Of a stretch of 64,000 nucleotides of DNA, positions 35,039 to 50,828 are shown piece by piece. Origin of the DNA: Armatimonadota bacterium. Lineage in GTDB: Bacteria; Armatimonadota; SYMT01. The stretch covers positions 32,001-96,000 of the forward strand of contig JBKBRF010000002.1 of the NCBI GenBank assembly GCA_046292385.1, in the 5' to 3' direction. Numbering within the stretch: the first letter of the stretch is position 1; each line of letters begins with the position of its first letter. The position numbers were made by a program, and so were the translations under genes. Below the pieces are notes generated by a model. The model worked only from the letters and a program-made list of their open reading frames with translations, did not search any database and had not been told where the DNA came from.

Positions 35039-35082
35039 ACTTAATAAATGGCGCTGCATAAGTGGCGGCAACCTGCTACACT
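35039..35082 (+). promoter_or_regulatory. Putative ROK/XylR-type operator and extended -10 promoter
   Basis: 25-bp ACTTAATAAATGGCGCTGCATAAGT (ACTTA-N15-TAAGT) in an AT-rich patch; TGcTACACT at 35074-35082. Confidence 0.6.
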
Positions 35083-35113
35083 GGAGTCAGTCGCCTTCCT
35101 CCCCCCACCCGCC

Positions 35114-36283
35114 ATGGCCCAGCGCTCTCCGATCCAGCCGGTCATCCTCAGCAAGATCAACGAGCGGCAGGTGCTCCGCACGCTGCTGCTGCAGGGCCCG
35201 CTCTCGCGCGCGGAGCTGGCGCGGCTGACCGGTATGACGCACCCCACCGTCTCCAAGGCGGTCGAGACGCTGCTCCTCGCCAACCTGCTGGAGGAGCGGG
35301 AGCCGGCGGCCAGCTTCGGACGTCCCGCGCGGAAGCTGGGGCTGGCGGCGCGGGCGCGGGTGCTGGGGCTGGTGATCGACGCCGGCTGGTGCCGGGTCGT
35401 CTCCGCGAGCCTGGACGGCCAGATCGACCCGGCGCTGACGCGGGAGTTCCCCACGCCGGAGAGTTACGAGGAGCTGATCGAGCGAACGGTCGAGTGTGCC
35501 GTGCCGCTGGTGGCGCTCGACGGCGTCACCACGCTCGGCATGGGGGTGAGCGTGCCGGGACTGGTCGACTACCGCCACCAGCGCAGCCTCCTCTCCCCGA
35601 ACGTGCCGATCACCAATGGCCGGTGCCCGGCGGCCGACCTGAAGAGCCGCCTCGGCATCGAGTGCGTGCTGATCCAGGAAGAGCACGCGCTCTGCCTGGC
35701 GGAGCGCTCCTTCGGGAGCGCGCGCGGCCTGGAAGACTTCGCGATCCTCGACGTCAGCACCGGGGTCGGTCTCGGCGTGATGAGCAGCGGACGTCTCCTC
35801 ACCGGCCGGAGCGGCCTGGCGGGCGAGATCGGCCACGTCACGGTAGAGCTGCGAGGCCGGCCGTGCGGCTGCGGCAACTGCGGCTGCCTGGAGACGGTCG
35901 CCTGCGACAGCGCCCTCGCCCGGATGGTCTCCGAGCGGCTCGGCCGGCGCATCTCGATCGACGAGATCCTGGCCCTGGCCGCCCGCGGCGAGCTCTCGCT
36001 GGAGCCGGAGCTGGAGCTGCTGAAGGAGTACCTCGCCGTCGGGATCGCCGCGGTGATCAACCTCTTCAACCCCGCCTCCCTCTTCGTACACGGCCGCCTC
36101 TTCGAGCTGGACGAGCGGATCTTTCCGGAAGTGGTGGAGCGCACGCGCGAGCGCGCCCTCTCCCCGTCTTTCGCCGACTGCGAGATCGTCCAGGCGCGCG
36201 GCAGCAAGCGGCAGGGAGCGGTCGCGGCGATGATCGAGCACCGCATCGACTCGCTTGTTCCTTCGGAGGTCGGGATTCTCTGA
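35114..36283 (+). CDS. ROK family transcriptional repressor
   Basis: HTH SRAELARLTGMTHPTVS; GEIGH...CGCGNCGCLE. Confidence 0.93.
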   Translation: MAQRSPIQPVILSKINERQVLRTLLLQGPLSRAELARLTGMTHPTVSKAVETLLLANLLEEREPAASFGRPARKLGLAARARVLGLVIDAGWCRVVSASLDGQIDPALTREFPTPESYEELIERTVECAVPLVALDGVTTLGMGVSVPGLVDYRHQRSLLSPNVPITNGRCPAADLKSRLGIECVLIQEEHALCLAERSFGSARGLEDFAILDVSTGVGLGVMSSGRLLTGRSGLAGEIGHVTVELRGRPCGCGNCGCLETVACDSALARMVSERLGRRISIDEILALAARGELSLEPELELLKEYLAVGIAAVINLFNPASLFVHGRLFELDERIFPEVVERTRERALSPSFADCEIVQARGSKRQGAVAAMIEHRIDSLVPSEVGIL

Positions 36284-36541
36284 CACAGAGGGACACAGAG
36301 GAACCAACAGAGGGGACACAGATTAGATCGAACTGCGCAGCACGGCCGCATCCATATTCCCGCCCCAGCCATCCTGAACGTCAGTGAAGGATCTCGGCAG
36401 CCGTGCTGGGACGGGAAACGCATTAACGTGGCGAGGGGCTGGTCTGCCGTGGATTAGCGGCCAGCGGGCAAGGAGCAGAGCCCAGAATGGCTGCCCTCTG
36501 TGGTCCTCTGTAAGTTCTTCTGTGTCCCTCTGTGTCGAAAA
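36281..36541. repeat. MITE-like element, copy 1 (GACACAGAGGGACACAGA termini; internal CATCCTGAACGTCAGTGAAGGATCT)
   Basis: Inverted termini; homologous in the opposite orientation to 38619-38983. Confidence 0.8.
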
Positions 36542-36559
36542 GAAAGCTCGTAAAGAACG

Positions 36560-37600
36560 ATGAGCACCTGGGAGCAGCGCTGGCATCCGCTGCGTGAGGA
36601 ATGGGTGATCGTGGCGGCCCACCGGCAGAACCGCCCCTGGATCGGGGAGACGGTGGGGGGCGACGAGCGGCCGACGCCGTCGTACGTGCCGGACTGCTAC
36701 CTCTGCCCGGGCAACTCCCGGGTGAGCGGGGCGCGGAACCCGGAGTACGCGTCGACCTACGTCTTCGACAACGACCACCCGTGCGTCGGCCCGCTCGCCC
36801 CGCGCGACCTGCCGCAGCCGGCAGGGATCCTGCGGAGCCGGCCGGCGGAGGGGATCGCCCGCGTCGTCTGCTACAGCCCGCTGCACAACGTCACCCTGGC
36901 GGAGCTGGAGCCGCCGCAGATCGAGGAGCTGCTGCGGGTCTGGCAGGAGCAGTACCGGGAGCTGGGTGCGCGCGACGAGGTGGCGCACGTCCTCGTCTTC
37001 GAGAACAAGGGCGAGGTGGTCGGCGTCTCCAACCCGCACCCGCACTGCCAGATCTACGCCACCAACTTCGTCTTCAAGACGATCGAGACGGAGGCGAAAG
37101 CGGGCGAGCGCCACCTGGCGGAGACGGGCCGCGTGCTGTTCCAGGACGTGCTCCAGGCGGAGCGTCAGGACGGACGCCGCATCCTGGCGGAGAACGAGAC
37201 CGCCATCGCCTTCGTCCCCTACTTCGCGCGCTACGCCTACGAGGTCTACGTCGCGCCGAAGGCGACTCATCCGAGCCTGGCGGGCCTCTCCGGCGAGGAG
37301 CTGCGCGGCTTCTCCGAGGTGCTGAAACGGGTGCTGGTGCAATTCGACAACCTCTGGGGGATGCCGTTCCCCTACGTGATGGCGCTCCACCAGGCGCCGA
37401 CCGACGGCCGCAAGTACCCCGGCTTCCACTTCCACCTCGAGTTCCACCCGCCGCTGCGAAAGCCGAACCTGCTGAAGTACCTGGCCGGGCCCGAGATCGG
37501 CGGCGGAAGCTTCCTGGCCGACACGGCGCCGGAGGAGAAGGCGGCGGAGCTGCGCTCGCAGCCGGAGATCCACTACAAGCGGCGAGGACTGGAGGCGTGA
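36560..37600 (+). CDS. galT: Sugar-1-phosphate uridylyltransferase (GalT family)
   Basis: RWHPL..EW...HR..RPW, CYLCPGN, FENKG and SNPHPHCQ (HPHxQ). Confidence 0.93.
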
Positions 37601-38742
37601 TGGCGGACCGACAGGCCGACGCGCGGGCGCTGCTGGAGCCGATCCGGCGCATCCACGAGGAGATCCGCGCCGCCGTGGTCGAGGCGTGCGAGGCGGCGGA
37701 GCGGGAGCAGTCCGACCACCTCTCCGGCGTGGCCGAAGAGGCGGAAGGCGACACGATCTACGCGGTTGACCGCGTCAGCGAGGAGCGGCTCGTCACCCTC
37801 TTCGAGCGGGAGATCGCCCCGACCGCGCCGCTGGTCCTGATCGCGGAGGGCCTGCCCGGCGGGAAGATGGTCCTCCCCCGCGGCACCTCGGAGGAGGACG
37901 CGGTCTGGCGGGTGATCGTCGACCCGATCGACGGCACGCGCGGCGTGATGTACCAGAAGCGCTCCGCCTGGATCCTCACCGGCGTGGCGCCGAACCGCGG
38001 GCCGGAGACCGACCTGCAGGAGATCGTCCTGGCGATCCAGACCGAGATCCCGCTGGTGAAGCAGCACCTCTCCGACACCGCCTGGGCCCTCCGCGGCGAA
38101 GGAGTGGGGGCGGAGCGGTTCAACCGCCTGACCGGCGAGCGGACCCCGCTGCGGCTGCGGCCGTCCCGCGCCGCCACCATCGAGCACGGCTACGCCGGGC
38201 TGACCCGCTTCTTCCCCGGCGCCCGCGAGGAGCTGGCCGCGATCGACGAAGAGATCGTCCGCGGCGCGCTCGGCCCCGTCCGCCGCGGGAAGGCTTCCTG
38301 CTTCGAGGACCAGTACGCCTCCACCGGCGGCCAGCTTTTCGAGCTGATGTGCGGCCACGACCGCTTCCAGGCCGACCTGCGCCCCCTGATGGAGCCGCTC
38401 CTCGCCCGCCGCGGCGTGGCGCTCGGGATCTGCTGCCACCCGTACGACCTCTGCACGGAGCTGATCGCCCGCGAGCTGGGCGTCCTCGTCACCGACCCGT
38501 CCGGAGAGCCGGTGCGGGCCCGGCTCGACGTGGAGCCGGACGTGGCGTGGGTCGGCTACGCGAACGCCGCGATCCGCGAGCAGATCGAGCCGCTGCTGCG
38601 GGAGGCGCTCTCCCGGCGTTTTTCGACACAGAGGGACACAGAAGAACTTACAGAGGGAACACAGATGGAATTCCCCGGTGAACTGTCGTCGTCACCGCGT
38701 CCCCGCCGCAGTCATCCTGAACGGAGTGAAGGATCTACGTAA
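37600..38742 (+). CDS. Inositol monophosphatase/FBPase-family phosphatase; C-terminus extended by a repeat element
   Basis: VDRVSEE, IAEG, VDPIDGT and HPYD motifs; last ~40 codons are element sequence. Confidence 0.85.
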
Positions 38743-38983
38743 CTAAGCTTGTTCCGAAGCGTGAGACCACCCGGACGGCCGAAATCCGCTTGCAGTGCCC
38801 TCATCCCCTGCCTGCGTATCCCGTCCCGGAGCGGCTGCCGAGATCCTTCACTGACGTTCAGGATGACTGGGGTTGGGGTCGGATGCGGCCGCGGATTAAC
38901 GTTCCAACCAACAGCGAATACCCGAGCCGGTTCCAATTCTGTGTCCCCTCTGTCCGTTCTTCTGTGTCCGTCCGTGTCGAAAA
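38619..38983. repeat. MITE-like element, copy 2
   Basis: TTTTCGACAC...GTGTCGAAAA termini; internal inverted GTCATCCTGAACG..GTGAAGGATCT pair. Confidence 0.8.
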
Positions 38984-38986
38984 GAC

Positions 38987-40414
38987 ATGCTCTTCTCACC
39001 TGAACTACAGCCAGCCGTAGCGAGCGCCCGGGATACCCTGTTCCGGGCGGGGGAGCCGCTCGTCGTCACGCGGGCGCCGGGGCGGCTCGACGTGATGGGC
39101 GGGATTGCGGACTACTCCGGCTCCCTGGTGCTGCAGCTTCCGATCCGGGAGGCGACCGTCGCCGCGCTGCAGCGGGATCCGGAGCCGGTGCTGCAGATCG
39201 TCAGCCTGGGGGCGGAGGCGAACGGCCGCAGCGCGGCGTTTACCATGCCGCTGTCCGACTTCCTGGACGCTGCGGGGGAGCCGGTCTCCTACCACGCGGC
39301 GCGGCGCTACTTCGGCGCCGATCCCCGGCAGGCGTGGGCGGCCTACGCCGCGGGCGCGTTCCTGGTCTTGATGCGGGAGCGCGGCGCGCGCTTCCCGGGC
39401 GGCGCGCGCATCCTCATCGCTTCCGAAGTGCCGGAGGGGAAAGGGGTCAGCTCCTCGGCGGCGATCGAGGTCGCGGTGATGCAGGCGATCGCGGCGGCAT
39501 TCGAGATCCCGCTCTCGCCGCGCGACCTCGCCCTGCTCTGCCAGCGGGTGGAAAACCGGGTGGTCGGCGCGCCGTGCGGGGTGATGGACCAGATGACCTC
39601 CGCCTGTGGGGAGGCGGCTCACCTGCTGGCGCTGCTCTGCCAGCCGGCGGAGATCGAGGGGACGGTGGCCGTGCCGGAGGAGATGGAGCTCTGGGGAATC
39701 GACTCGGGCGTGCGCCACTCCGTCTCCGGCGCGGACTACGGCTCGGTGCGGGTCGGCGCGTTCATGGGCTATCGCATCCTGGCGGAGGCCTGCGGCTTCG
39801 CGGTGGAGCGCACGGAGCAGGAGCAGCTCGTCCGCGTTACCGATCCCCGCTGGCACGGCTACCTGGCCAACGTCACCCCCTCCGAGCTGGAGCAGCACCT
39901 GCTCCGCCACCTGCCGGAGCGGCTGACCGGCGAGGAATTCCTCGCCCGCTGCGGCGGGACCACCGACCCGGTGACGCGCATCGATCCGGACCGCTCCTAC
40001 GCGGTGCGGGTCCCCACCTGCCATCCCGTTTACGAGAGCCACCGGGTGCGGACCTTCGCGGAGCTGCTGCGCGGTGCCCCCGGCGAGCGGCGGCTGGAGC
40101 TGCTGGGCGAGCTGATGTTCCAGTCGCACGCCAGCTACTCCGCCTGCGGCCTCGGGTCGCAGGCAACCGACCGGCTGGTGGAGCTGGTCCGGGCGGCGGG
40201 ACCGGCGGCGGGGCTCTACGGCGCCAAGATCACCGGCGGCGGCAGCGGCGGCACCGTGGCGGTGCTGGGACGCCGCGGCGCGGAGCCGGCCGTGCGGGAG
40301 ATCGCGGAGCGGTTCGCGGGCGAGGCCGGTCACCGGCCCTATCTCTTCTCATCCTCGTCGCCCGGCGCGGCGGCGTTTGGATCTCTCACCCTGGAAAGGG
40401 AGCACCTGGTTTAG
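38987..40414 (+). CDS. GHMP kinase resembling plant L-arabinokinase (ARA1)
   Basis: RAPGRLDVMGGIADYSGSLVLQ, PEGKGVSSSA, VGAPCGVMDQM and GAKITGGGSGGTV motifs. Confidence 0.85.
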   Translation: MLFSPELQPAVASARDTLFRAGEPLVVTRAPGRLDVMGGIADYSGSLVLQLPIREATVAALQRDPEPVLQIVSLGAEANGRSAAFTMPLSDFLDAAGEPVSYHAARRYFGADPRQAWAAYAAGAFLVLMRERGARFPGGARILIASEVPEGKGVSSSAAIEVAVMQAIAAAFEIPLSPRDLALLCQRVENRVVGAPCGVMDQMTSACGEAAHLLALLCQPAEIEGTVAVPEEMELWGIDSGVRHSVSGADYGSVRVGAFMGYRILAEACGFAVERTEQEQLVRVTDPRWHGYLANVTPSELEQHLLRHLPERLTGEEFLARCGGTTDPVTRIDPDRSYAVRVPTCHPVYESHRVRTFAELLRGAPGERRLELLGELMFQSHASYSACGLGSQATDRLVELVRAAGPAAGLYGAKITGGGSGGTVAVLGRRGAEPAVREIAERFAGEAGHRPYLFSSSSPGAAAFGSLTLEREHLV

Positions 40415-40416
40415 CG

Positions 40417-41916
40417 ATGCAGCAAGCGACTCTCACCCTCGACCGGGACTTCGTCGTCTCGGAGGTCGACCCGCGCCTCTTCGGCGGGTTCGTGGAGCAC
40501 CTCGGGCGCCACATCTACACCGGCATCTACGAGCCGGAGCACCCGACGGCGGATGAGCACGGCTTCCGCCAGGACGTGGTGGAGCTGGTCCGCGAGCTGC
40601 GGATGCCGATCATGCGCTATCCCGGCGGCAACTTCGTCTCCGGCTACCGCTGGGAGGACGGCGTCGGGCCGCGGGAGCGGCGGCCGAAGCGGCTCGACCT
40701 CGCCTGGGGCGGCCTGGAGCCGAACCTGATCGGCACCAACGAGTTCGCCGACTGGTGCAAGCAGGTCGGCTCGGTCCCGATGCTCGCCGTCAACCTCGGC
40801 ACGCGTGGCCCGGAAGAGGCACAGGCGCTGGTGGAGTACTGCAACCACCCGGGCGGGACCTACTACAGCGACCTCCGCCGGGAGCACGGCTACCTGGAGC
40901 CGCACGGCATCAAGGTCTGGTGCCTGGGCAACGAGATGGACGGCCCCTGGCAGATGGTCCAGAAGACCGCCTGGGAGTACGGGCGGCTCGCCAACGAGTC
41001 GGCGAAGCTGATGAAGTGGACCGATCCGACGATCGAGACGGTCCTCTGCGGCTCCTCGGGCCGGACGATGAAGACGTTCGGGAGCTGGGAGTGGGAGTCG
41101 CTCCAGCAGGCGTACGAGACGACCGACTACCTCTCGCTCCACACCTACTACGGCAACACCACCGACGACACGGCGGCCTTCCTCGCCAAGCCGGAGGAGA
41201 TGGGCGACTTCATCCGCGAGGGGATCGCGCTCTGCGACGCCGTCCGTGCCCTGAAGCGGAGCAAGAAGTTCGTCCACCTGAGCTTCGACGAGTGGAACGT
41301 CTGGCGCCAGACCCGCGACCTGGTGACTCCGGGCGAGAAGTGGACCGCCGGCCGGCCCCAGCTCGAGCAGCAGTACAACATGGAAGACGCGCTGGTAGTC
41401 GGCGGCATGCTGATCACGCTGCTCACCCACGCGGACCGCGTGCGGATCGGGTGCATCGCGCAGGTGGTGAACGCGATCGCGCCGATCATGACGGAGCCGG
41501 CCGGACGCATCTGGAAGCAGCCGACCTACCACCCGTTCCTGGCCGCCTCACACCTGGGGCGCGGCACGGTGCTGCAGTCGCTGGTCCACGCGCCGGGCTA
41601 CGAGTGCAGCCACCGCGACGACGTGCCGGTGGTCCAGCTCGCCTCCGTGGCGGACGAGTACGGCCTGACGGTCTTCGCGGTGAACCGGGAGCCGAACGGG
41701 CAGCCGGTCCGGCTCTCCGCCGCCCTGCGGCGCTTCGACCGGATCCGCACGGCGCGGCACCAGGTGCTGACGCACGCCGACCTGAAGGCGACCAACTCCG
41801 CCGACGAGCCGGAGAAGGTGGCGCCGCGGATGGTCGACGCCCCCACCCTGGAGGGCGACGGCTTCACCGCCGAGCTGCCGCCTTACTCCTGGAACGTGCT
41901 TCGCTTTGAGCACTAG
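40417..41916 (+). CDS. abfA: Alpha-L-arabinofuranosidase GH51 (cytoplasmic)
   Basis: FVEHLGR, RYPGGNF, LGNEMDG and SFDEWNVW motifs; no signal peptide. Confidence 0.92.
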   Translation: MQQATLTLDRDFVVSEVDPRLFGGFVEHLGRHIYTGIYEPEHPTADEHGFRQDVVELVRELRMPIMRYPGGNFVSGYRWEDGVGPRERRPKRLDLAWGGLEPNLIGTNEFADWCKQVGSVPMLAVNLGTRGPEEAQALVEYCNHPGGTYYSDLRREHGYLEPHGIKVWCLGNEMDGPWQMVQKTAWEYGRLANESAKLMKWTDPTIETVLCGSSGRTMKTFGSWEWESLQQAYETTDYLSLHTYYGNTTDDTAAFLAKPEEMGDFIREGIALCDAVRALKRSKKFVHLSFDEWNVWRQTRDLVTPGEKWTAGRPQLEQQYNMEDALVVGGMLITLLTHADRVRIGCIAQVVNAIAPIMTEPAGRIWKQPTYHPFLAASHLGRGTVLQSLVHAPGYECSHRDDVPVVQLASVADEYGLTVFAVNREPNGQPVRLSAALRRFDRIRTARHQVLTHADLKATNSADEPEKVAPRMVDAPTLEGDGFTAELPPYSWNVLRFEH

Positions 41917-42011
41917 GCAGGGTTAGCAGGTTGGCAAGTTGCAGGTTGCCAGGTTCCGAACCGGCCTTCGGGCGATCGGCAACCTGCCAACCTGCAACCT
42001 GTGAACCTGAA
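41917..42011. repeat. Inverted cluster of short CAGGTTG/CAACCTG repeats
   Basis: gcaggttggcaagttgcaggttgccaggtt ... caacctgccaacctgcaacctgtgaacctg. Confidence 0.7.
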
Positions 42012-42055
42012 ACAGTCAGCCCCGGACAGCAAACGCCGGCCTTCGGACCGAAAGC

Positions 42056-43381
42056 ATGCCAAACGCCCAGATCCACAACCGCATGACTCGCCGCAAGCTG
42101 CTCGCCTCCGTGCCGCTTGCGACCGCGGTGCTGGGCAGCACGGGCTGCGGCGTGGTGGGCGGGAAGACCCCGGTGCGGTTCTGGAACGGCTTCACCGGGC
42201 CGGACGGCCGTACCATGCTGCGCATGGTGAAGCGGTTCAACCAGGAGAACCCGGACGTCCACGTGGTGATGCAGCGGAGCGAGTGGGCCACCCACTACAA
42301 CAAGGTGTTCGTGGCCGGCCTCGGCAAGCGGGCTCCGGAGGTTTTCGTCGTCCACACCCGCACCATGGAGCGGTTCGTCCGCGCGGGGCTGGTCCGCCCG
42401 AACGACGACCTCGTCTCCGGCGCCGCGGCGGGAGAGCCGCTCGACGTCTCGGACCTCGACACCAACGTGTGGGAAGGGGTGGAGTTCGACGGCCGGCATT
42501 ACGCGTTGCCGATCGACGTCCACGCGATGGGTATGTACTTCAACCGCGCGCGCTTCCGCGAGGCGGGGCTGGTCGGCGCCGGGGGGGAGCCGGTCCTGCC
42601 GACCGACCGGGAGGGGCTGCTCGACGCCTGTCACCAGATGACGCGCCCCGCCCGCGGCGGCGAGCCGCCGCGGTGGGGGTACGTCTTCCACAACTGGGAG
42701 GGGCACCTCTACACCTTCATGCGCCAGTTCGGCGGCGAGTTCTTCACGTCGGACCACCGCCGGTGCCTGCTGCACAACCCGGAGAACGTCGCCGCGCTGC
42801 AGCTCTGCGTCGACATGATCCGCCGCTACCAGGTGGCGCCGCCCCCCGAGAACTTTGACTCCTGGATCGGGTTCCGGCAGGGGAAGGTTGGCATCACCTA
42901 CGAGGGGATCTACATGCTGGCCGACCTGCAGAAGCAACAGGACCTCGACTACGGCGGCGCGCCGGTGCCGCTGGTCGGCACCGAAAAGGCGGTCTTCGCC
43001 GACTCGCACAACCTCTGCCTCCGCGCCGACCTCGAAGGCCCGCAGTTGGAGGCGGCGTGGCGGTTCCTGCGGTTCCTCTCGGACCACAGCCTCGATTGGG
43101 CGGAGGGCGGGCAGATCCCGGTGCGGCAGAGCCTGCGCGCCACCCCGCGCTTTGCGAGCATGACGGTCCAGTCCGCCTTCGCGCGTCAGATCCCGTACGT
43201 CACCTACTTCCCCCGGATGACCTACATCCTGGAGTTCCTGCGAGAGTACAACCTGGCGATCGAGCTCGCCACGCGCGGGCGCGCCTCCGCGAGCGACGCG
43301 CTCCGGGGCGCGGAGGAGCGGGTGAACCGGATCATCCAGCGGGAGCGGTCCGCGCAGCGGACGGGTGAGGTGTGGGTATGA
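42056..43381 (+). CDS. Sugar ABC transporter substrate-binding lipoprotein
   Basis: TRRK Tat/lipobox GC; FWNGFTGPDG and YALPID motifs. Confidence 0.9.
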   Translation: MPNAQIHNRMTRRKLLASVPLATAVLGSTGCGVVGGKTPVRFWNGFTGPDGRTMLRMVKRFNQENPDVHVVMQRSEWATHYNKVFVAGLGKRAPEVFVVHTRTMERFVRAGLVRPNDDLVSGAAAGEPLDVSDLDTNVWEGVEFDGRHYALPIDVHAMGMYFNRARFREAGLVGAGGEPVLPTDREGLLDACHQMTRPARGGEPPRWGYVFHNWEGHLYTFMRQFGGEFFTSDHRRCLLHNPENVAALQLCVDMIRRYQVAPPPENFDSWIGFRQGKVGITYEGIYMLADLQKQQDLDYGGAPVPLVGTEKAVFADSHNLCLRADLEGPQLEAAWRFLRFLSDHSLDWAEGGQIPVRQSLRATPRFASMTVQSAFARQIPYVTYFPRMTYILEFLREYNLAIELATRGRASASDALRGAEERVNRIIQRERSAQRTGEVWV

Positions 43382-44250
43382 GCCGGGCGCGTGGGCGTGA
43401 GAACGCCTCCAAATACCTCTTCGCGCTGCCGTTCCTGGTGCTCTTCGGCGGCTTCGTGGCGCTGCCGCTCGTCTACGGCCTGGTGCTCAGCCTCTTCCGC
43501 TGGGACATGCTCTCCGCCCTGCCGCCCCGCTTCATCGGGCTCGACAACTACCGCGAGGCGCTCGGCGACCGCTACTTCTGGATGGCGCTCGGCGCCACCG
43601 GCCGGTTCGTCGGCATGGCGGTCCCGCTCACGGTCTGCGTGGCGCTCGCGGTGGCGGTCGGCATCAACGGCGTCCCCTCCCGCTACCAGGCGTTCTACCG
43701 CGCCGCCTACTACCTGCCGACCGTCATCACCATTACGGTGGCCGGCCTGCTCTGGCGCTGGTTCTACAACAGCGAGTTCGGGCTGTTCAACGCTTACCTG
43801 GGCCAGGTCGGGATGAAGGTGCCCTGGATCACCGATCCGCGGTGGGCGATGCTCTCCCTGGTGCTGATGACGGTCTGGTGGACGGTCGGCGGCCCCATGG
43901 TGGCGCTGCTCGCCGGCCTGCAGAACATCCCGGCGGCGTACTACGAGGCGGCGGCACTCGACGGCGCCACCGGCTGGAACCGCTTCCGCCACGTCACGCT
44001 GCCGCTCCTCCGGCCGGTGCTGCTCTTCGTGGTGGTAATGAACGTGATCGGCGCGTTCCAGGTGTTCGGGCAGGTCTACATCATCACCCGCGGCGGCCCG
44101 GAGATGAGCACGCGGACGATGGTCCAGTACATCTACGAGACCGCCTTCAACAACTACCGGATGGGGTACGCCGCGGCGCTGAGCTGGCTGCTCTTTGCGG
44201 TGATCGCGCTTTTCTCGCTGCTGCAGTTTCGGTTGATGAGGGAGCGATGA
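43378..44250 (+). CDS. Sugar ABC transporter permease
   Basis: FIGLDNY and EAA loop YYEAAALDGA. Confidence 0.93.
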   Translation: MSRARGRENASKYLFALPFLVLFGGFVALPLVYGLVLSLFRWDMLSALPPRFIGLDNYREALGDRYFWMALGATGRFVGMAVPLTVCVALAVAVGINGVPSRYQAFYRAAYYLPTVITITVAGLLWRWFYNSEFGLFNAYLGQVGMKVPWITDPRWAMLSLVLMTVWWTVGGPMVALLAGLQNIPAAYYEAAALDGATGWNRFRHVTLPLLRPVLLFVVVMNVIGAFQVFGQVYIITRGGPEMSTRTMVQYIYETAFNNYRMGYAAALSWLLFAVIALFSLLQFRLMRER

Positions 44251-44339
44251 GCTTCGTTTTCTTTCCAGAGCTGAAGGACGTGGTGTTCTGCTGCTCGTCG
44301 CACAGCAGCAAACATCCCGAGCGTCCGACCCCGCGCCCT

Positions 44340-44910
44340 TGTGCCGGGAGGCAGCCCTCCCGCGGCGGGTGCCCTCCGCGGCCTTTTCACGCTCCGGCTT
44401 CGCCTCCGCTAGCAGGCCGCTCCGGGAGTGCGCTCCGGTTCGCTCTTCCCGCGTCACAGACGGGATCACCCCAACAGCCTGGTTCACGGGCTGCCTCCCG
44501 GCCCTTCGAGCGAACCCCCCTACGCCCAGGGGGGTTCACAGGTGCCGCCCTTCGGGCGCCCTGGTTTCTGGCTGCGGCGCAACCGGTACCGCGCTTCATC
44601 CTGCGATCAGACATCCCAGACGCTATGGGGCCAGAAACTATCGGAGCCTGGAGGCGCTGCCGCAGGCAGAGCCGGAGGGATCCCTTTGTGACCACCCCTA
44701 GCGGGGGTGGTTGCTTGAGCCGGGCGGGGCGGCCCGTGAATCGCGGTGCCGGTTCAGCCGCAGCTTGCGAACGCGGAGCGCAGCCTTCCGCCGCGCACGC
44801 CCGGACCAGCCCGCTAACGGAGCGGAGCGGAGTGTGAAAGGGCTGAGGAAGGGCCACACACGCGGGAGGGCCGCCCCGCCCGGTGAGGGCACGGGGTGGA
44901 ACCCCGGTGA
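44340..44910. repeat. Palindrome-rich intergenic element with imperfect terminal inverted repeats
   Basis: gccttttcacgctccg..ctccgctagc (~44380) versus gctaacggagcggagcggagtgtgaaagggc (~44813); several internal hairpins. Confidence 0.5.
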
Positions 44911-44988
44911 GAAGCCGGTCCCGCCCAGCAAAGACCGCCTACGACAACAGCCTGAACCAAGAACCCCATCTCACCGAGGAGAACCCGG

Positions 44989-47445
44989 ATGCGCCGAAGA
45001 CGCTCTCACCTCACGTCATCCTTAATCGTCACCTCCGCCCTGCTCGCCCTCACCGCCTGGCAGGCGCACCACGGCCAGGCGCAGGAGGCGCCCGCGGCGG
45101 CGGAGCTGGTGGTGCACGCCGACCGGCCCGGGCCGCGGGTCAGCCCGCTGATGTACGGGGTCTTCTTCGAGGAGATCAACCACGCGGGCGACGGCGGGAT
45201 CTACGCGGAGCTGGTGCGGAACCGCTCGTTCGAGGACGGCACCGCGCCCGAGGCATGGAGCGCGGTGGCGCGGGAGGGTGGGCAGCCGGTGCTGGCGCTC
45301 GATACCGACCGGCCGCTGAACGCGGCGCAGGGGAAGTCGCTGCGTGTGGAGCTGCGCGGCCCGGGCGCGGCCGGGGTCGCGAACGACGGCTACTGGGGCG
45401 TGCCGGTGCGGAAGGGGGCGGAGTACCGGCTCTCGCTCTTCGCGCGCGCCTCCTCCCGGCTGCGGACGCCGCTGGTCGCCTCGCTGGAGGGGAAGGACGG
45501 CCGGGTCTACGCCCGCAGAGAGCTGGGCGGGCTGAAGGAGGAGTGGACGCGCCTGACCGGCACGCTGCGCGCGAGCGAGAGCGACCCCGCCGCGCGGCTG
45601 GTCCTCACCACGCCGGGCACCGGGACACTGTGGCTCGACGTCGTCTCCCTCTTCCCGGCGGACACCTGGAAGGGGCGGGCGAACGGGCTGCGGCGGGACC
45701 TGGCCGAGAAGGTGGCAGGGCTCGCCCCCGCGTTCGTGCGGTTCCCGGGCGGCTGCTTCGTGGAGGGCTCCCGGCTGGAGAACGCGGTCCGCTGGAAGCG
45801 GACGATCGGCCCGATCGAGGAGCGGCCGGGTCACCCGAACGCGAAGTGGGGTTACCGCTCCAGCGACGGCCTCGGCTACCACGAGTACCTGCAGTGGTGC
45901 GAGGACCTCGGCGCGGAGCCGATCTTCATCATTAACTGCGGGATGGCGTGCGGCTTCGACGGCGGCGAGTGCGTGCCGCTGGAGGAGCTGGGCGAGTGGA
46001 TCCAGGACGCGCTCGACGCGATCGAGTACGCGAACGGTCCGGTCACCAGCCGCTGGGGCGCCGTGCGGGCGAAGAACGGGCATCCGAAGCCGTTCAACAT
46101 GAAGCTCCTGGGGGTCGGCAACGAGAACGGCTGGGGCCAGTACCTCCCGCAGTATGAGGAGCGGTACGCGCGCTTCTACGACGCGATCAAGAAGCGCTAC
46201 CCGGAGATGCAGCTCATCGCCACCACGCCGGTCCGCTCCCGGCCGATGGACATCCTGGACGACCACTACTACAACAACCCGCAGTGGTTCTGGGCGAACA
46301 CCGGCCTCTACGACCGCCGCGACCGCAAGGGGCCGAAGATTTACGTCGGCGAGTTCGCCGTCACGCAGAACGCCGGCACCGGCAACCTGGCGGCGGCGGT
46401 GGCGGAGGCGGCGTTCATGACCGGCCTGGAGCGGAACGCCGACCTGGTGCAGATGGCCTCCTACGCGCCGCTATTCGTGAACGTGCGGGACCGCAAGTGG
46501 AACCCGGACGCGATCCCGTTCGACACCAGCCGCAGCTACGGCACGCCGTCGTACTACGTGCAGAAGCTGTTCGCGGAGAACCGGCCCGACGTGGTGCTAA
46601 ACAGCGAGCTCTCTCTGCCGCCGGCGACGGTAGAGAAAGGCGGGATCGGCCTCGGCACCTGGCTCACGCAGGCGGAGTTCAAGGACGTCGAGGTGATCCG
46701 GGACGGCAAGACGGTCTACTCTTCCCGCTTCCAGGATGACGCGCCGGAGTGGCGGCGGCAGGGCGGGGAGTGGTCGGTGCGGAACGGCGCCCTCCGGCAG
46801 AGCGCCGCGGGCGAGGACCGGCGGATCGTGCTGGCGGAGCCGTCGCTGGCGGACGCCTCCGACTACACCCTCCGCCTGAAGGCGCGCAAGCTGGGCGGCG
46901 CGGAAGGCTTCCTGATCATGTTCCGGAACCGCAGCCGCGGCGACTTCTACTGGTGGAACATCGGCGGCTGGCAGAACCGGGAGCACGCGATCGAAAAGGG
47001 GGTCGGCGGCGGAAAGGTGACCCTGGGGCCGCGCGTGCCGGGCAGCGTGGAGACGGGCCGCTGGTACGACATCCGGATCGAGCTGCAGGGTCCGCGGGTC
47101 CGCTGCTACCTCGACGGCAAGCTGATCCACGACGAGATCGATCGCGGCACGCCGGACCTGGCGGCGGTGGCGGGACGGGTCGACCGCACCGGCGAGATCA
47201 TCCTGAAGGTGGCGAACGGCGCGGAGACCGCCCGCCCGATGACGCTGCGGCTGAACGGCGCCGGCTTGCTGCGGGGGACCGGCACCGCCACCGTGCTCAC
47301 CTCCGGCTCGATGGCGGACGAGAACTCGCTCGACCAGCCGGAGCGGGTGGCGCCGCGCACGGTGCCGGTGGAGGGGGTGAGCTCCCGGTTCACCTACACC
47401 TTCCCGCCGCGCTCCGTGACGGTGCTGCGGCTGAAGAAGCGCTGA
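44989..47445 (+). CDS. Secreted alpha-L-arabinofuranosidase GH51 with an inserted beta-sandwich domain
   Basis: Signal peptide; FFEEINH, RFPGGC, GVGNEN, YVGEFA and SYAPL motifs. Confidence 0.9.
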   Translation: MRRRRSHLTSSLIVTSALLALTAWQAHHGQAQEAPAAAELVVHADRPGPRVSPLMYGVFFEEINHAGDGGIYAELVRNRSFEDGTAPEAWSAVAREGGQPVLALDTDRPLNAAQGKSLRVELRGPGAAGVANDGYWGVPVRKGAEYRLSLFARASSRLRTPLVASLEGKDGRVYARRELGGLKEEWTRLTGTLRASESDPAARLVLTTPGTGTLWLDVVSLFPADTWKGRANGLRRDLAEKVAGLAPAFVRFPGGCFVEGSRLENAVRWKRTIGPIEERPGHPNAKWGYRSSDGLGYHEYLQWCEDLGAEPIFIINCGMACGFDGGECVPLEELGEWIQDALDAIEYANGPVTSRWGAVRAKNGHPKPFNMKLLGVGNENGWGQYLPQYEERYARFYDAIKKRYPEMQLIATTPVRSRPMDILDDHYYNNPQWFWANTGLYDRRDRKGPKIYVGEFAVTQNAGTGNLAAAVAEAAFMTGLERNADLVQMASYAPLFVNVRDRKWNPDAIPFDTSRSYGTPSYYVQKLFAENRPDVVLNSELSLPPATVEKGGIGLGTWLTQAEFKDVEVIRDGKTVYSSRFQDDAPEWRRQGGEWSVRNGALRQSAAGEDRRIVLAEPSLADASDYTLRLKARKLGGAEGFLIMFRNRSRGDFYWWNIGGWQNREHAIEKGVGGGKVTLGPRVPGSVETGRWYDIRIELQGPRVRCYLDGKLIHDEIDRGTPDLAAVAGRVDRTGEIILKVANGAETARPMTLRLNGAGLLRGTGTATVLTSGSMADENSLDQPERVAPRTVPVEGVSSRFTYTFPPRSVTVLRLKKR

Positions 47446-47458
47446 GAGGCGGTTCCGG

Positions 47459-48322
47459 ATGCAGACGGTGATCCCACGCAAGCGGACCGGAAGGCGGCCG
47501 GGGACCCTGAGCTGGGCCCTCGGTCCGCTCCTGCTCGCGCTTGGCGCGCTGCTCTTCCTGGCGCCGGTGGCGATCATGCTGCTGACCGCGCTCAAGCCGG
47601 ACGCGGAGATCGTCCACTTCCGCAGCATCTGGCCGGAAGACGCGACGCTGGCCAACTTCCGGGAGATCCTGGGCAGCGCGGAGGAGATCCCGATCTTCCG
47701 CTGGCTGGGGAACAGCCTGCTGATCTCCTCCAGCGTCGCCGCGCTCGTGGTGACGGTCAGCTCGCTGGCGGCCTACGCCTTCGCGCGGCTCGACCTGCCC
47801 GGGAAGCGGTGGCTCTTCCCGCTGGTGGTCGGCACGCTGATGGTGCCCGGCCAGGTGCTGCTGGTGCCGGTCTACATGATCCTCAACCAGCTCGGCTGGA
47901 TCGATACGCCGCTGGCGCTGATCGTACCCGCGGGCGGGAGCGCCTTCGGCTTCTTCATGCTGCACCAGTTCTTCCTCGGCATCCCGCGGGAGCTGGAGGA
48001 GGCGTCCGAGCTCGACGGCTGCTCCCGCCTCGGCACCTTCCTGAACGTGGTGCTCCCGCTCTCCCGGCCCGCCCTGGCGGCGCTGGCAATCTTCGTCTTC
48101 GTCGGCTCCTGGAACGACTTCCTCGGCCCGCTGGTCTTCCTCGACTCGGTGGAGCGGTACACGCTGCCGGTCGGCGTCGCCCTCTTCCAGAGCTCCTACG
48201 CTACGGAATACGGCCTCACCCTCGCCGCCGCCGTGATCTGCACCTTCCCGGCCGTCGCCGCGTTCCTGCTCTTCCAGCGCCAGATCATCCAGGGGATCGC
48301 GGTGACGGGGCTGAAGGAGTGA
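47459..48322 (+). CDS. Sugar ABC transporter permease
   Basis: AAYAFAR, IPRELEEASELDG and WNDFL motifs. Confidence 0.93.
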   Translation: MQTVIPRKRTGRRPGTLSWALGPLLLALGALLFLAPVAIMLLTALKPDAEIVHFRSIWPEDATLANFREILGSAEEIPIFRWLGNSLLISSSVAALVVTVSSLAAYAFARLDLPGKRWLFPLVVGTLMVPGQVLLVPVYMILNQLGWIDTPLALIVPAGGSAFGFFMLHQFFLGIPRELEEASELDGCSRLGTFLNVVLPLSRPALAALAIFVFVGSWNDFLGPLVFLDSVERYTLPVGVALFQSSYATEYGLTLAAAVICTFPAVAAFLLFQRQIIQGIAVTGLKE

Positions 48323-48346: not shown

Positions 48347-48704
48347 GAAAGGGGATAGGGGGATGGGGAACGGAGATGATGGGGATGGGCAGCCAACCAA
48401 ACTTAGTTCCTACTGCTCTGAAAACAGCCTTCCAGGGCGTAGGAGACAGGCTGACGCTCCGGCACGGCCTAACCCCCCAACCCCCTTCCCTAAAGTGGAA
48501 GGGGGAGCAGGCTAGCTTTCCACCGATAGCTTCCCTCTCCTCTCAGGAGAGGGACCGAGGGTGAGGCCCCGTGAGAGGGCTTCAGCCCCCCGCGCATAGG
48601 CGGCCCGTCCACGGTCAAGGAACGGTCGGACTTTAGCCTTTTGCCTTTAGCCTTTTGCCTTTTGCCTTTTGCCTCTTACGTCTCCTCATCTCCTTTTCTT
48701 ACAC
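48347..48704. repeat. Composite intergenic repeat region
   Basis: Ends related to the 22198 element; ccccttccc..ggaaggggg and ccctctcc..ggagaggg palindromes; TTTTGCC heptamers at 48631-48674. Confidence 0.6.
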
Positions 48705-48721
48705 TTTTGCGGAGGCCCGGA

Positions 48722-49825
48722 ATGATCCACCATAGACGCCCCAGCTTTCGCATCGCTGTCGCCATGGCGGTGGGGGTGGGGCTGCTGTTTGGGGCGGCGG
48801 GGCTGACGCGGGCGCAGCGGGCGCCGGAGCCGGCGGCGGGGGCGATCCGGCACGTGCACGACCCGTGCCTGATCAAGCAGGGCGACGCCTACTATCTCTT
48901 CTCCACCGGCCACGGGATTCCGATCCGGAAGTCGAAGGATCTGGTTCGCTGGGAGCTGGTGGGACGCGTCTTCAAAGAAGACCTGCCCACGTGGGCCAGG
49001 GAGGAGATCCCCGGCAGCGTCTTCCCCTGGGCGCCGGACATCGCCTACCTCAACGGGCGGTACCATCTCTACTACTCCGTCTCCTCGTTCGGGAAGAACC
49101 GCTCGCTGATCGCGCTCGCGACGAACAAGACGCTCGACCCGCAGAGCCCGGACTACGCCTGGAAGGACGAAGGGAAGGTGTTCGAGTCGCACCCCGGCGA
49201 CGACCACAACGCGATCGACTCGAACGTGCTCCTCACGAAGCAGAGCGACCGGGAGCGGCTGGCGTTCACCTTCGGCTCGTTCTGGTCCGGCCTCAAGCTG
49301 ATCGAGATGATGCCCACCACCGGCAAGCTGCCGGACAGCGGGGCGCCCGTAATCCGGATCGCCAGCCGCCCCCGCCCGGGCGCCGTGGAGGCGCCGTTCC
49401 TGATCGAGCGGGACGGCTACCACTACCTCTTCGTGTCGTTCGACTTCTGCTGCCGGGGCGTGCGGAGCACCTATAACATCCGGGTCGGGCGCTCGAAAAA
49501 GCTGGAGGGGCCGTACCTCGATCGGGAGGGCAAGTCGCTGCTGGAAGAAGGCGGGACGCCGGTGCTGGCGACAAAAGGGCGGGAGATCGGACCCGGGCAC
49601 TGCGCGGTGCTGCGGGAGCCGGGCCGCGACCTGCTGGTCTACCACTTCTACGACGGCATGGCGAACGGCATCCCCACGCTGCAGATCCGCCCGCTGAGCT
49701 GGGACGCGGACGGCTGGCCGACGCCCGGCGAGCCGCTCGTGCCGCTGCCCGATCCGGGCGTGAAGCCGGACGACGCGCCCGCCCGGCCGGACGACGGCTG
49801 CGCCGGCTGCGGGTCGGAAGACTGA
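48722..49825 (+). CDS. Secreted GH43 arabinan endo-1,5-alpha-L-arabinosidase
   Basis: VHDP, WAPD, NAIDSN, FGSFWSG, VEAPF, FDFCCRG and GPGH motifs. Confidence 0.9.
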   Translation: MIHHRRPSFRIAVAMAVGVGLLFGAAGLTRAQRAPEPAAGAIRHVHDPCLIKQGDAYYLFSTGHGIPIRKSKDLVRWELVGRVFKEDLPTWAREEIPGSVFPWAPDIAYLNGRYHLYYSVSSFGKNRSLIALATNKTLDPQSPDYAWKDEGKVFESHPGDDHNAIDSNVLLTKQSDRERLAFTFGSFWSGLKLIEMMPTTGKLPDSGAPVIRIASRPRPGAVEAPFLIERDGYHYLFVSFDFCCRGVRSTYNIRVGRSKKLEGPYLDREGKSLLEEGGTPVLATKGREIGPGHCAVLREPGRDLLVYHFYDGMANGIPTLQIRPLSWDADGWPTPGEPLVPLPDPGVKPDDAPARPDDGCAGCGSED

Positions 49826-49856
49826 TCGGAACGCGAGAGGAAGAAGGAAGCGACAG

Positions 49857-50828
49857 ATGATCCTGGTGACCGGCGGCGCCGGCTACATCGGCAGCCACTA
49901 CGTTCTCTACGAGCGGGCCCGCGGGAGCGAGGTCGTGGTGCTCGACAACATGGTCTACGGCCACCCGGAGGCGGTGCTCGACGCGCCGCTGGTGGTGGGC
50001 GAGCTGGGCGACCGCGCCACGCTCGACCGCGTCTTCACGGAGTACCAGGTCGACGCGGTGGTCCACTTCGCCGCGTTCGCCTACGTGGGCGAATCGGTCA
50101 CGAAGCCGGAGAAGTACTACCACAACAACGTGGTCGCCACCCTCGGCCTGCTCGACGCGATGCGGGACCACGGGATCCGGCACTTCATCTTCTCGTCGTC
50201 GTGCGCCACCTACGGCAACCCGCAGTACGTCCCGATGGACGAGCAGCACCCGCAGGACCCGATCAACCCGTACGGGGAGAGCAAGTTCATCTGCGAGAAG
50301 ATCATGAAGGCGTATGACCGCGCCCACGGTCTCCGCTTCGCGGCGCTGCGCTACTTCAACGCCGCCGGCTGCGATCCGGAAGGCCGCATCGGCGAGAGCC
50401 ACGATCCGGAGACCCACCTGATCCCGCTGATCCTGCAGGCGGCCCAGGGGAAGCGGGACGCGATCACCGTCTTCGGCACCGACTACGACACGCCGGACGG
50501 CACCTGCATCCGGGACTACATCCACGTCCTCGACCTGGCCCAGGCGCACAGCCTCGCGCTGGAGCGGCTGCGCGGCGGCGGCGAGAGCGGCTTCTTCAAC
50601 CTGGGGACGGAGACGGGTCACTCCGTCCGCGAGGTGATCCGCGTCTGCGAAGAGGTCTCCGGCCGCCCCGTCCCGGTGCAGGAAGGCCCCCGCCGGGAAG
50701 GCGACCCGCCGCGACTGGTCGCCAGCGCAGCCAAGGCCCGCGAAGTGCTCGGCTGGCGCCCGCAGTACCTCGACCTGCGGGAGACGATCGCCACCGCCTG
50801 GAAGTGGGAGGAGAGCCGGCGGTACTGA
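49857..50828 (+). CDS. galE: UDP-sugar 4-epimerase (GalE / UDP-xylose 4-epimerase type)
   Basis: TGGAGYIGSH, HFAAFAYVGES, FSSSCATYG, YGESK and RDYIHV motifs. Confidence 0.92.
   Translation: MILVTGGAGYIGSHYVLYERARGSEVVVLDNMVYGHPEAVLDAPLVVGELGDRATLDRVFTEYQVDAVVHFAAFAYVGESVTKPEKYYHNNVVATLGLLDAMRDHGIRHFIFSSSCATYGNPQYVPMDEQHPQDPINPYGESKFICEKIMKAYDRAHGLRFAALRYFNAAGCDPEGRIGESHDPETHLIPLILQAAQGKRDAITVFGTDYDTPDGTCIRDYIHVLDLAQAHSLALERLRGGGESGFFNLGTETGHSVREVIRVCEEVSGRPVPVQEGPRREGDPPRLVASAAKAREVLGWRPQYLDLRETIATAWKWEESRRY

Follow-up and report, generated by a model that had tools for sequence, protein, structure and literature searches.

A gene cluster of an Armatimonadota bacterium, conserved across several phyla, that most likely breaks down L-arabinose to xylose through UDP-sugar intermediates

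Eleven genes, all on the plus strand, span positions 35048–50828 of the window, by which we mean the whole 64,000-nucleotide stretch of Armatimonadota DNA that was analysed. The window has a GC content of 70%; genes were chosen by third-position GC content and then named with Pfam and NCBIfam. The gene order and coordinates of this same-strand cluster agree with the initial annotation, which had also stated that araA, araB and araD are absent from the window; a scan of 22 further ORFs of the window found none of the three. The features are as follows.

35048–36283, plus strand: ROK/MarR regulator (PF00480, 149.5 bits; PF12802)
36560–37600, plus strand: GalT-like uridylyltransferase (TIGR00209, 286 bits, cut-off 102)
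37597–38742, plus strand: IMPase/FBPase-like phosphatase (PF00459, 31.2 bits, cut-off 27)
38987–40414, plus strand: ARA1-type GHMP kinase (TIGR00131, 146 bits, below the cut-off of 227)
40411–41916, plus strand: cytoplasmic GH51 ArfA (NF051901, 724 bits, cut-off 625)
42056–43381, plus strand: solute-binding lipoprotein (PF01547)
43372–44250, plus strand: ABC permease 1 (PF00528; UgpA/MalF-like)
44251–44988, no strand: non-coding spacer with a dispersed repeat; no frame passes the third-position GC screen
44989–47445, plus strand: secreted GH51 with CBM4_9 (PF22848, PF06964, PF02018, PF06439)
47459–48322, plus strand: ABC permease 2 (PF00528; UgpE/MalG-like)
48641–49825, plus strand: secreted GH43 AbnA-like endo-arabinanase (PF04616, 148 bits)
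49857–50828, plus strand: GalE-type UDP-sugar 4-epimerase (TIGR01179, 436 bits, above cut-off)

The regulator belongs to the ROK family and carries an N-terminal winged-helix (MarR_2) domain; it is NagC/Mlc-like but scores under the cut-offs of those models, and it is likely the repressor of the cluster. In related loci, a DeoR regulator takes the place of the ROK protein. Of the two GH51 enzymes, ArfA has no signal peptide, whereas the second combines a signal peptide and CBM4_9 with an inserted 3-keto-disaccharide-hydrolase-like domain. The GH43 protein has a hydrophobic N-terminus and reaches 276 bits with NF053747, under the cut-off of 480. The solute-binding protein begins with a lipoprotein-signal-like N-terminus, and the CUT1-type ABC importer probably carries arabino-oligosaccharides. 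Separately, and not mentioned in the initial annotation, the 738 bases between permease 1 and the secreted GH51 contain a dispersed repeat and no gene, and lie outside the pathway discussed below. This hairpin-forming repeat of about 630 nt (minimum free energy of −381.5 kcal/mol for 635 nt) is matched at 112 sites across 45 contigs of this genome and had no match in an Rfam scan.

By sequence, the kinase is a relative of ARA1-type arabinokinases, far closer to the plant enzymes than to any GalK. Along its whole length, it aligns with residues 465–945 of an Arabidopsis ARA1-type arabinokinase at 51% identity (E = 3e-155), and plant proteins named L-arabinokinase show about 50–54% identity over 94–99% of its length. 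Identity drops to 26% with the genome's own GalK and to about 23% with human GALK1, and the galactokinase model falls short of its cut-off. PDB entries 9ULX/9ULY (‘AbGHMP’, 498 aa) clearly belong to the same family, as judged by molecule name and alignment only, with 9ulx scoring 646 bits against kinase residues 18–470; no publication mentioning ‘AbGHMP’ was found in the literature searched. ARA1 phosphorylates L-arabinopyranose at C1, as described in the sections consulted of PMC5897480, and over-expression of its kinase domain alone raises UDP-L-arabinose in arabinose-fed plants, according to the part consulted of PMC12281597. This homology leads us to propose L-arabinose as the kinase substrate.

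The GalT-like protein belongs to a family in which the H-P-H active site, the equivalent of Gln168 and the Zn ligands are kept in all members (49/49). The cluster protein shares 41% identity with the second GalT of the genome and 59–77% with cluster-linked copies in other phyla. In the sugar-binding loop, neither the GalT-like family nor this second GalT matches the E. coli enzyme, so the loop gives no signal of specificity. We propose from context that the GalT-like enzyme converts L-arabinose 1-phosphate and UDP-xylose to UDP-L-arabinose and xylose 1-phosphate. The cluster GalE is one of two copies in the genome and is 54% identical to the other; context likewise points to interconversion of UDP-L-arabinose and UDP-D-xylose as its proposed reaction, and UDP-xylose 4-epimerase activity is documented for GalE-type enzymes (PMC5897480, in the sections consulted). 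We compared the cluster with 80 related loci from Acidobacteriota, Planctomycetota, Chloroflexota, Gemmatimonadota, KSB1, Latescibacterota and Myxococcales; a GalE gene is present in 25 of them, mostly directly 3′ of the kinase.

Both GalT and GalE pass the cut-offs of galactose-pathway models, so the cluster might instead be an additional Leloir set that handles D-galactose, or a different sugar of galacto configuration (e.g., D-fucose), released from arabinogalactan, with an incidental phosphatase; in locus L044, genes for GH42 and GH2 do adjoin the module. We regard this as highly improbable: the kinase does not reach the galactokinase cut-off, and plant arabinokinases are far nearer to it than any GalK is; a canonical galK–galT pair is encoded elsewhere in this genome, the module has a canonical GalK as its neighbour in L034, L054 and L065, and the hydrolases in the window are of arabinan-specific families.

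The phosphatase-like enzyme is divergent. Its PF00459 match covers the N-terminal part only, yet D109-P-I-D112-G-T114, E84 and D284 are invariant across 32 sequences of the family. An AF2 model (pLDDT 84.7) finds class I FBPases as its best matches in a Foldseek search of the PDB (E = 1e-13), suggesting that the protein is a divergent member of the IMPase/FBPase fold; residues 348–380 form a low-confidence tail absent from homologues. The Foldseek PDB copy ends at 2026-04-08 and does not include 9ULX/9ULY. No close solved relative of the phosphatase was found. From context only, we infer α-D-xylose 1-phosphate as the substrate, which is the weakest inference of the pathway.

Conservation of this gene set extends to soil bacteria from several phyla in which the textbook arabinose genes are missing. 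Of the 55 loci with all three genes, 50 keep the order galT-like, phosphatase, kinase on a single strand; the loci span at least seven phylum-level groups, and galE comes next in many. Upstream sequence of 2400 nt or more is available for 69 loci: the GalT-like gene is present in 59 of these and the phosphatase in 55, the two occur together in 51, and 6 have neither of them. The enzymes also occur as natural fusions, both GalT–kinase (833–850 aa) and phosphatase–kinase (844 aa), and in L080 the phosphatase and kinase share one ORF of 828 aa. At the genome level, we sampled 201 genomes of one class, and the phosphatase family was found in 73/73 kinase-positive and 15/128 kinase-negative genomes. 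The corresponding counts for xylA are 69/73 and 39/128, and, of 44 genomes bearing the kinase, 41 gave an xylA match. Because related genomes are not independent, a Fisher test overstates this co-occurrence, and the association with xylA could mirror a general plant-polymer lifestyle.

These distributions bear on what the phosphatase does. With the kinase, GalT and GalE acting as proposed, it could serve as a safety valve for excess sugar 1-phosphates, or hydrolyse some other phosphate ester, while carbon exits elsewhere. Its proposed substrate comes purely from context, and in eight loci GalT is followed immediately by the kinase and no phosphatase adjoins them. Ten genomes without a kinase-adjacent phosphatase gene were searched, and the family was not found in four of these genomes, of uncertain completeness; in some genomes, such as G103 and G111, family matches of lower score (about 405–450 bits) lie at a distance from the kinase. 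We nevertheless judge such a role unlikely, given that the family accompanies the kinase in every kinase-positive genome of the sampled class, that a fused phosphatase hydrolysing the product of its own kinase would be futile, that the loci examined show no recurring alternative exit enzyme, and that xylB–xylA stands directly 3′ of the module in several loci.

A xylose-forming exit is consistent with the sugar genes of this genome (98.45% completeness). The initial annotation had called for a genome-wide search for araABD and xylAB: araA gave no match, the best araD match reached 31 bits with none over the cut-off, and xylA and xylB are both present with scores above cut-off, encoded away from the cluster. 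An araB-type ribulokinase passes its cut-off (693 bits) as an orphan amid unrelated genes, which may leave room for a non-canonical isomerase or epimerase. The lack of araA is not discriminating, as the gene was found in 0 of the 201 genomes of the sampled class, kinase-bearing or not.

The neighbours of the module speak to the direction of flux. In a further check proposed by the initial annotation, the gene set proved to be linked to arabinosidases elsewhere, with GH51 or GH43 adjoining it in 21 of the 80 loci; XylA or XylB occurs in 15, and GH127 in L037. An unbroken galT–phosphatase–kinase–galE–xylB–xylA array is found in L044 and L073, and in L024 the order is DeoR, GH43, GH51, galT–phosphatase–kinase–galE, a pentose-type ABC transporter and then xylB–xylA. 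Alternatively, the enzymes might perform a plant-like salvage, converting free L-arabinose to UDP-L-arabinose and UDP-xylose for the cell's own glycans. Plant ARA1 proteins, the sole relatives of the kinase to have been characterised, act in salvage (PMC5897480, in the sections consulted), and in some loci, e.g., L083 and L055, the kinase lies in unrelated surroundings. This seems very unlikely to us, as the operons that hold the module also encode arabinosidases, both secreted and cytoplasmic, along with sugar importers, ROK/DeoR regulators that respond to sugars, and xylB–xylA, and no glycosyltransferase was found among 69 neighbour ORFs scanned (picked from 128 ORFs of 11 loci). Moreover, salvage needs no dedicated phosphatase, and a GalT-type exchange yields zero net UDP-sugar.

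We therefore favour catabolism and consider it reasonably probable that this locus serves arabinan utilisation and has a Leloir-like pentose pathway as its cytoplasmic arm, with all substrates assigned by homology and context. Outside the cell, the GH43 endo-arabinanase and secreted GH51 would cleave arabinan, and the ABC transporter would import the oligosaccharides, from which the cytoplasmic GH51 would free L-arabinose. The ARA1-type kinase would convert the sugar to β-L-arabinose 1-phosphate, which would gain UMP from UDP-xylose through the GalT-like enzyme, producing UDP-L-arabinose and α-D-xylose 1-phosphate. The GalE copy would then epimerise UDP-L-arabinose at C4 to regenerate UDP-xylose, while the IMPase/FBPase-fold enzyme would release free xylose from xylose 1-phosphate. 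Xylose would enter the pentose phosphate pathway via XylA and XylB, whose genes lie elsewhere in this genome but belong to the operon itself in some relatives. The route would cost two ATP per arabinose instead of the one spent in the isomerase route, which we count against it. Each computational check that was run supports the Leloir-type arabinose-to-xylose interpretation put forward in the initial annotation as a candidate; no description of such a route was found in the literature searched, and the term ‘undescribed’ is valid for that literature only.

The proposed route would fill the same role as the AraBAD and oxidative L-arabinose pathways, through which arabinan-derived arabinose reaches central metabolism, and its GH51, GH43 and ABC importer genes resemble those of classical arabinan loci; its enzymes, however, have no homology to either pathway, and araA/araD were not found in this genome. 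Plant L-arabinose salvage (ARA1 and UDP-sugar pyrophosphorylase, with the epimerases MUR4 and UGE1/UGE3) has L-arabinose 1-phosphate, UDP-L-arabinose and UDP-xylose in common with the proposed route but is anabolic and uses a pyrophosphorylase in place of the GalT exchange. Plant ARA1 also carries an N-terminal glycosyltransferase-like domain (PF13528) that the bacterial kinases lack, and we know of no linked phosphatase or xylAB in plants. The bifidobacterial GNB/LNB pathway (LnpA–D), a Leloir variant for N-acetylhexosamines, likewise places a paralogous kinase/GalT/GalE set for a galactose analogue in a glycan-utilisation operon. It differs in handling hexosamines with an APH-type kinase (NahK) and a phosphorylase and, to our knowledge, has no phosphatase exit. 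A further parallel is the Leloir D-galactose pathway (GalK, GalT, GalE and phosphoglucomutase), which draws on these three enzyme families as well, where an anomeric kinase, a uridylyl exchange and a donor-regenerating C4 epimerisation follow in the same order, and whose curated galT and galE cut-offs the cluster's enzymes pass. Here, the proposed substrate is a pentose and the kinase comes from the ARA1 branch rather than GalK; a phosphatase exit would replace the mutase, so the first ATP would not be recovered, and the product would feed XylA/XylB rather than glycolysis, in a genome that keeps a separate galK–galT pair.

The arabinose cluster comprises eleven genes on the + strand. Genes were chosen by third-position GC content, because at ~70% GC the raw ORF lists fill with spurious frames, and named with Pfam and NCBIfam; the gene order, coordinates and single strand reported in the initial annotation were all recovered in this way.

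35048-36283, + strand, ROK/MarR regulator
36560-37600, + strand, GalT-like transferase
37597-38742, + strand, IMPase-like protein (the phosphatase-like protein of the text)
38987-40414, + strand, GHMP kinase
40411-41916, + strand, GH51 ArfA, cytoplasmic by its N-terminus
42056-43381, + strand, solute-binding protein, a lipoprotein by its N-terminus
43372-44250, + strand, first permease
44989-47445, + strand, GH51 with CBM4_9, secreted by its N-terminus
47459-48322, + strand, second permease
48641-49825, + strand, GH43 endo-arabinanase, secreted by its N-terminus
49857-50828, + strand, GalE

Outside the cluster, none of the other 22 ORFs scanned in the window is an arabinose gene, as the initial annotation had it. 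The secreted GH51 (44989-47445) has its CBM4_9 at the N-terminus; residues 586-743, within the C-terminal domain region, are an inserted 3-keto-disaccharide-hydrolase-like (DUF1080-type) domain. The gene at 58101-58772 encodes another member of this DUF1080-type family as a free-standing protein. The C-terminal half of an 813-aa ORF directly upstream of the ROK regulator (32529-34970) carries, at residues 394-794, a LuxC-type acyl-CoA reductase domain, and a class III aminotransferase at 31088-32425 precedes this ORF; the ORF failed the third-position GC screen, so its true start is uncertain.

The 738 nt that separate the first permease from the secreted GH51 (44251-44988) contain a GC-rich repeat of ~630 nt, folding as a single long hairpin whose halves match each other in reverse (minimum free energy -381.5 kcal/mol, 635 nt). 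Across the genome, 112 places on 45 contigs have sequence resembling it, 25 of them at least 500 nt long, and an Rfam search of the region 44100-45100 gave zero matches. In appearance the repeat is a large palindromic element of the MITE or REP type. The 276-nt ROK-GalT spacer (36284-36559) is bounded by the inverted repeats CACAGAGGGACACAGA ... TCTGTGTCCCTCTGTG and ~60 nt of it recur inverted in the phosphatase-kinase spacer at 38743-38986 (36343-36403 versus 38832-38891). The spacers after the cytoplasmic GH51 (41917-42055) and after GalE (50829-51133) are internally palindromic. The loose packing at the ROK-GalT and phosphatase-kinase spacers is due to insertions; the corresponding genes of other phyla lie end to end or almost so.

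The candidate pathway would begin with an ARA1-type kinase converting arabinose into Ara-1-P, from which the GalT-like enzyme, using UDP-Xyl, would generate UDP-Ara and Xyl-1-P. GalE would restore UDP-Xyl from UDP-Ara, and the phosphatase would hydrolyse Xyl-1-P, with XylA and XylB acting next. The kinase contains GHMP N- and C-terminal domains and a galactokinase-type sugar-binding signature, with Pfam matches all over cut-off (PF00288, 72 bits; PF08544, 34.5 bits; PF10509, 24.6 bits), and scores 146 bits against the galactokinase model TIGR00131, under the 227-bit cut-off. It is 51% identical to residues 465-945 of an Arabidopsis arabinokinase-type protein (E 3e-155), including one stretch of 21 identical residues, and a search among longer proteins recovered plant L-arabinokinases of ~990 aa that align over 94-99% of the query at roughly 50-54% identity. 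Identity drops to 26% with the genome's own GalK and to ~23% with the nearest solved galactokinases. Compared by fold with PDB structures (copy to 2026-04-08), the kinase model has human GALK1 as its top matches. Sequence comparison thus places the kinase nearer to the characterised plant arabinokinases than to galactokinases.

The strong homology to a characterised enzyme points to an ARA1-type L-arabinokinase (EC 2.7.1.46), with putative phosphorylation of L-arabinopyranose at C1. A review describes phosphorylation of L-arabinopyranose at C1 by ARA1 (PMC5897480), and a study of arabinose-fed Arabidopsis reports that over-expression of the ARA1 kinase domain alone raises UDP-L-Ara (PMC12281597). 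In a word-indexed search, kinase relatives of ~490 aa number in the thousands, the 120 listed sharing 64-78% identity; JGI automatic annotation calls many of them 'L-arabinokinase', and others carry the name 'galactokinase'. A very close homologue, 'AbGHMP', has been solved (PDB 9ULX/9ULY, 646 bits).

The GalT-like protein matches TIGR00209 with 286.5 bits (cut-off 102.1) and both PF01087 and PF02744. The protein was aligned to 1hxq, and the zinc ligands, the catalytic H-P-H and Gln168 were checked. C52, C55, H115, H164-P-H166, Q168, N153, K311 and E317 (E. coli numbering) are present in 49 of 49 members, the window protein included. The sugar-binding loop departs from E. coli at Y316 (P) and Q323 (L); the genome's other GalT, 41% identical to that of the cluster, is likewise unlike E. 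coli there, which makes these residues uninformative as a specificity signature. GalE scores 436.4 bits against TIGR01179 (cut-off 262.3), has 8wxk as its closest solved relative (418 bits), and is 54% identical to the genome's other GalE. We know of no sequence signature for UDP-Xyl/UDP-L-Ara 4-epimerase activity. For the plant GalE-type enzymes UGE1 and UGE3, UDP-Xyl 4-epimerase activity is documented in the review (PMC5897480). The GalT and GalE steps are based on intact catalytic machinery, context and fusions, and their pentose specificity is putative.

The phosphatase-like protein matches PF00459 weakly (31.2 bits, cut-off 27) and over residues 26-123 only. In an alignment of 32 family members, E84, D109-P110-I111-D112-G113-T114 and D284 are invariant, and an alignment to 1vdw places the region around D284 at that protein's second IMPase motif. 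The motif D-P-[IL]-D-[GS]-[TS], together with an upstream Glu and a downstream Asp, we take to be the metal ligands of IMPase/FBPase enzymes. A PDB profile search gave a best E of 0.002 and no close solved relative. The AlphaFold (AF2) model (pLDDT 84.7) has class I fructose-1,6-bisphosphatases as its best Foldseek matches (E 1e-13, TM 0.5-0.7, 12-16% identity). The protein is a divergent member of the IMPase/FBPase superfamily of Mg-dependent sugar phosphatases. Among 1.84 billion representative proteins, 440 clusters match the profile of this family at E 1e-30 or better, and the clusters resembling it carry only the automatic name 'inositol monophosphatase family protein'.

The genome (7.04 Mb, 91 contigs, 98.45% complete) lacks a complete araABD set and encodes both XylA and XylB, in line with the route put forward in the initial annotation. 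The N-terminal AraA domain PF02610 has 0 matches in the genome (the control was positive in 5 of 14 reference genomes, as expected), and the best genomic match to the AraD model TIGR00760 reaches 31.3 bits (cut-off 389) and contains a stop codon. A lone AraB-type ribulokinase at 30002-31606 of contig C7 scores 692.6 bits against TIGR01234, well over cut-off; its neighbours are an anti-sigma-factor-like gene and rsmE, and no ara genes lie nearby. XylA (568 bits) and XylB (593 bits) lie on contigs other than that of the cluster. A canonical galactokinase (365 bits, over cut-off) adjoins the second GalT on contig C5, and the second GalE lies on C1, so that the GalT, GalE and kinase of the cluster are extra copies. 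The alternative that the module is a second galactose-type Leloir set is rated lower than the arabinose route. In three related loci, a canonical GalK homologue stands beside the module, which identifies GalK and the module kinase as separate kinases.

At least 454 kinase relatives were found in species-representative genomes, and 80 loci were retained from Acidobacteriota, Planctomycetota, Chloroflexota (including the isolate Dictyobacter aurantiacus), Gemmatimonadota, KSB1, Latescibacterota and Myxococcales. Neighbouring genes were located by tblastn with the window proteins, to which the locus proteins are 47-77% identical across phyla. A GalT-like gene is present in 63 loci, the phosphatase in 60 and GalE in 25; among the 69 loci with enough upstream DNA (at least 2400 nt), 51 have both GalT and phosphatase and six have neither. 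Where all three genes occur, the order is GalT-phosphatase-kinase on one strand in 50 of 55 loci and phosphatase-kinase-GalT in the remaining five. GH51 or GH43 homologues accompany the kinase at 21 of the 80 loci and XylA or XylB at 15 (raw counts), so the linkage to arabinosidase genes seen in the window recurs elsewhere. Two loci (L044 and L073) contain galT, phosphatase, kinase, galE, xylB and xylA unbroken, and another (L024) reads DeoR, GH43, GH51, galT, phosphatase, kinase, galE, pentose-type ABC transporter, xylB and xylA; a fourth, L048 of Dictyobacter aurantiacus S27, has deoR, galE, galT, phosphatase and kinase.

A Pfam scan of 69 neighbouring ORFs in 11 loci, chosen from 128 ORFs called there, identified DeoR regulators, GH51, GH43, GH42, GH2, GH127 and DUF2961, and no glycosyltransferase among them. 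Salvage of UDP-arabinose for glycan synthesis is a reading we rate below catabolism of arabinose to xylose. In a Candidatus Marinacidobacterales MAG (L037:8100-9922), the locus of the kinase seems to have been broken up: all that is left of the phosphatase gene, just upstream of the kinase, is a C-terminal fragment adjoining an IS66 transposase and a DruA-like gene, and a fragment of a GH127 beta-L-arabinofuranosidase lies downstream.

Several proteins join the steps covalently. GalT-kinase fusions of 833-850 aa have the GalT-like part at the N-terminus, 71% identical to the window GalT in one Gemmataceae record. A phosphatase-kinase fusion of 844 aa has a phosphatase-like domain 55% identical to that of the window, and locus L080 encodes phosphatase and kinase in a single 828-aa ORF. 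The profile search with the phosphatase family likewise turned up long members of 767-824 aa. Because a fused phosphatase cannot sensibly attack the product of its own kinase, the favoured substrate is a sugar 1-phosphate other than the kinase product. We infer alpha-D-xylose 1-phosphate from pathway logic, from the constant operon position of the phosphatase, and from the fusions and co-occurrence.

Co-occurrence was analysed in 201 genomes of the acidobacterial class that contains locus L020, a sample of related genomes with shared lifestyles. The kinase is present in 73 of them. The phosphatase family occurs in 73/73 kinase-positive versus 15/128 kinase-negative genomes, and a xylose isomerase match in 69/73 versus 39/128 (counted with TIGR02631; TIGR02630 at E 1e-30 was dropped, class I XylA scoring near 1e-31). 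The two Fisher p-values (1e-20 and 3e-40) make the evidence look stronger than it is, because the genomes are related and share lifestyles. Among 44 kinase-bearing genomes from the loci, 41 have a xylA match, over cut-off in 33. araA is found in 1 of these 44 and in 0 of the 201 class genomes, kinase or not; its absence offers no contrast and is consistent with the route, not discriminating. In the family of the window organism, 2 of 7 species genomes carry the kinase.

Within the class sample, the phosphatase family apparently falls into two score groups, one of ~520-617 bits, usually beside the kinase, and one of ~405-450 bits, elsewhere in the genome (as in G103, G111 and G144). Most of the 15 kinase-negative genomes that have the family carry the latter group too; it may be a paralogous subfamily whose role is related yet distinct. 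In ten genomes without a phosphatase gene beside the kinase, the family occurs elsewhere in six (in one as a truncated copy by an IS66 transposase) and was not found in the other four. A different role for the phosphatase of the module, for which these four genomes and the lower-scoring group away from the kinase leave room, is rated lower than Xyl-1-P hydrolysis, with which its presence in every kinase-positive genome of the sample and its fusion to the kinase are consistent.

Taken together, the evidence fits the arabinose-to-xylose scheme proposed in the initial annotation. On balance, we lean slightly towards a further, widespread form of bacterial L-arabinose catabolism, in which a kinase/uridylyltransferase/epimerase module would epimerise arabinose to xylose at the UDP-sugar level and an uncharacterised IMPase/FBPase branch would provide the exit as alpha-D-xylose-1-phosphate phosphatase. 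Acidobacteriota would have in it one of their principal arabinose pathways, also present in Chloroflexota, Planctomycetota and other soil phyla without araA. L-arabinose is among the main pentoses of plant cell walls, and the carriers of the module are abundant, poorly cultured soil phyla. If the reading is true, reconstructions of metabolism in which araBAD or oxidative genes decide whether arabinose is used overlook these carriers, and a phosphatase family now known only by its inositol monophosphatase label would gain a function. Standalone bacterial enzymes would become available to make Ara-1-P, UDP-L-Ara, UDP-Xyl and Xyl-1-P, and arabinose could be channelled through xylose-pathway hosts.

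The full-text literature, outside which most subscription journals lie, yielded no bacterial catabolic route via Ara-1-P, UDP-Ara and Xyl-1-P and no paper on 'AbGHMP'; the only papers that came up deal with plant salvage or chemo-enzymatic work. The deposition of PDB 9ULX indicates that the kinase family is already studied by someone, and the route may already be described somewhere. As a biochemical principle, what would be new here is the known Leloir cycle operating on a pentose and leaving by hydrolysis into the xylose pathway.
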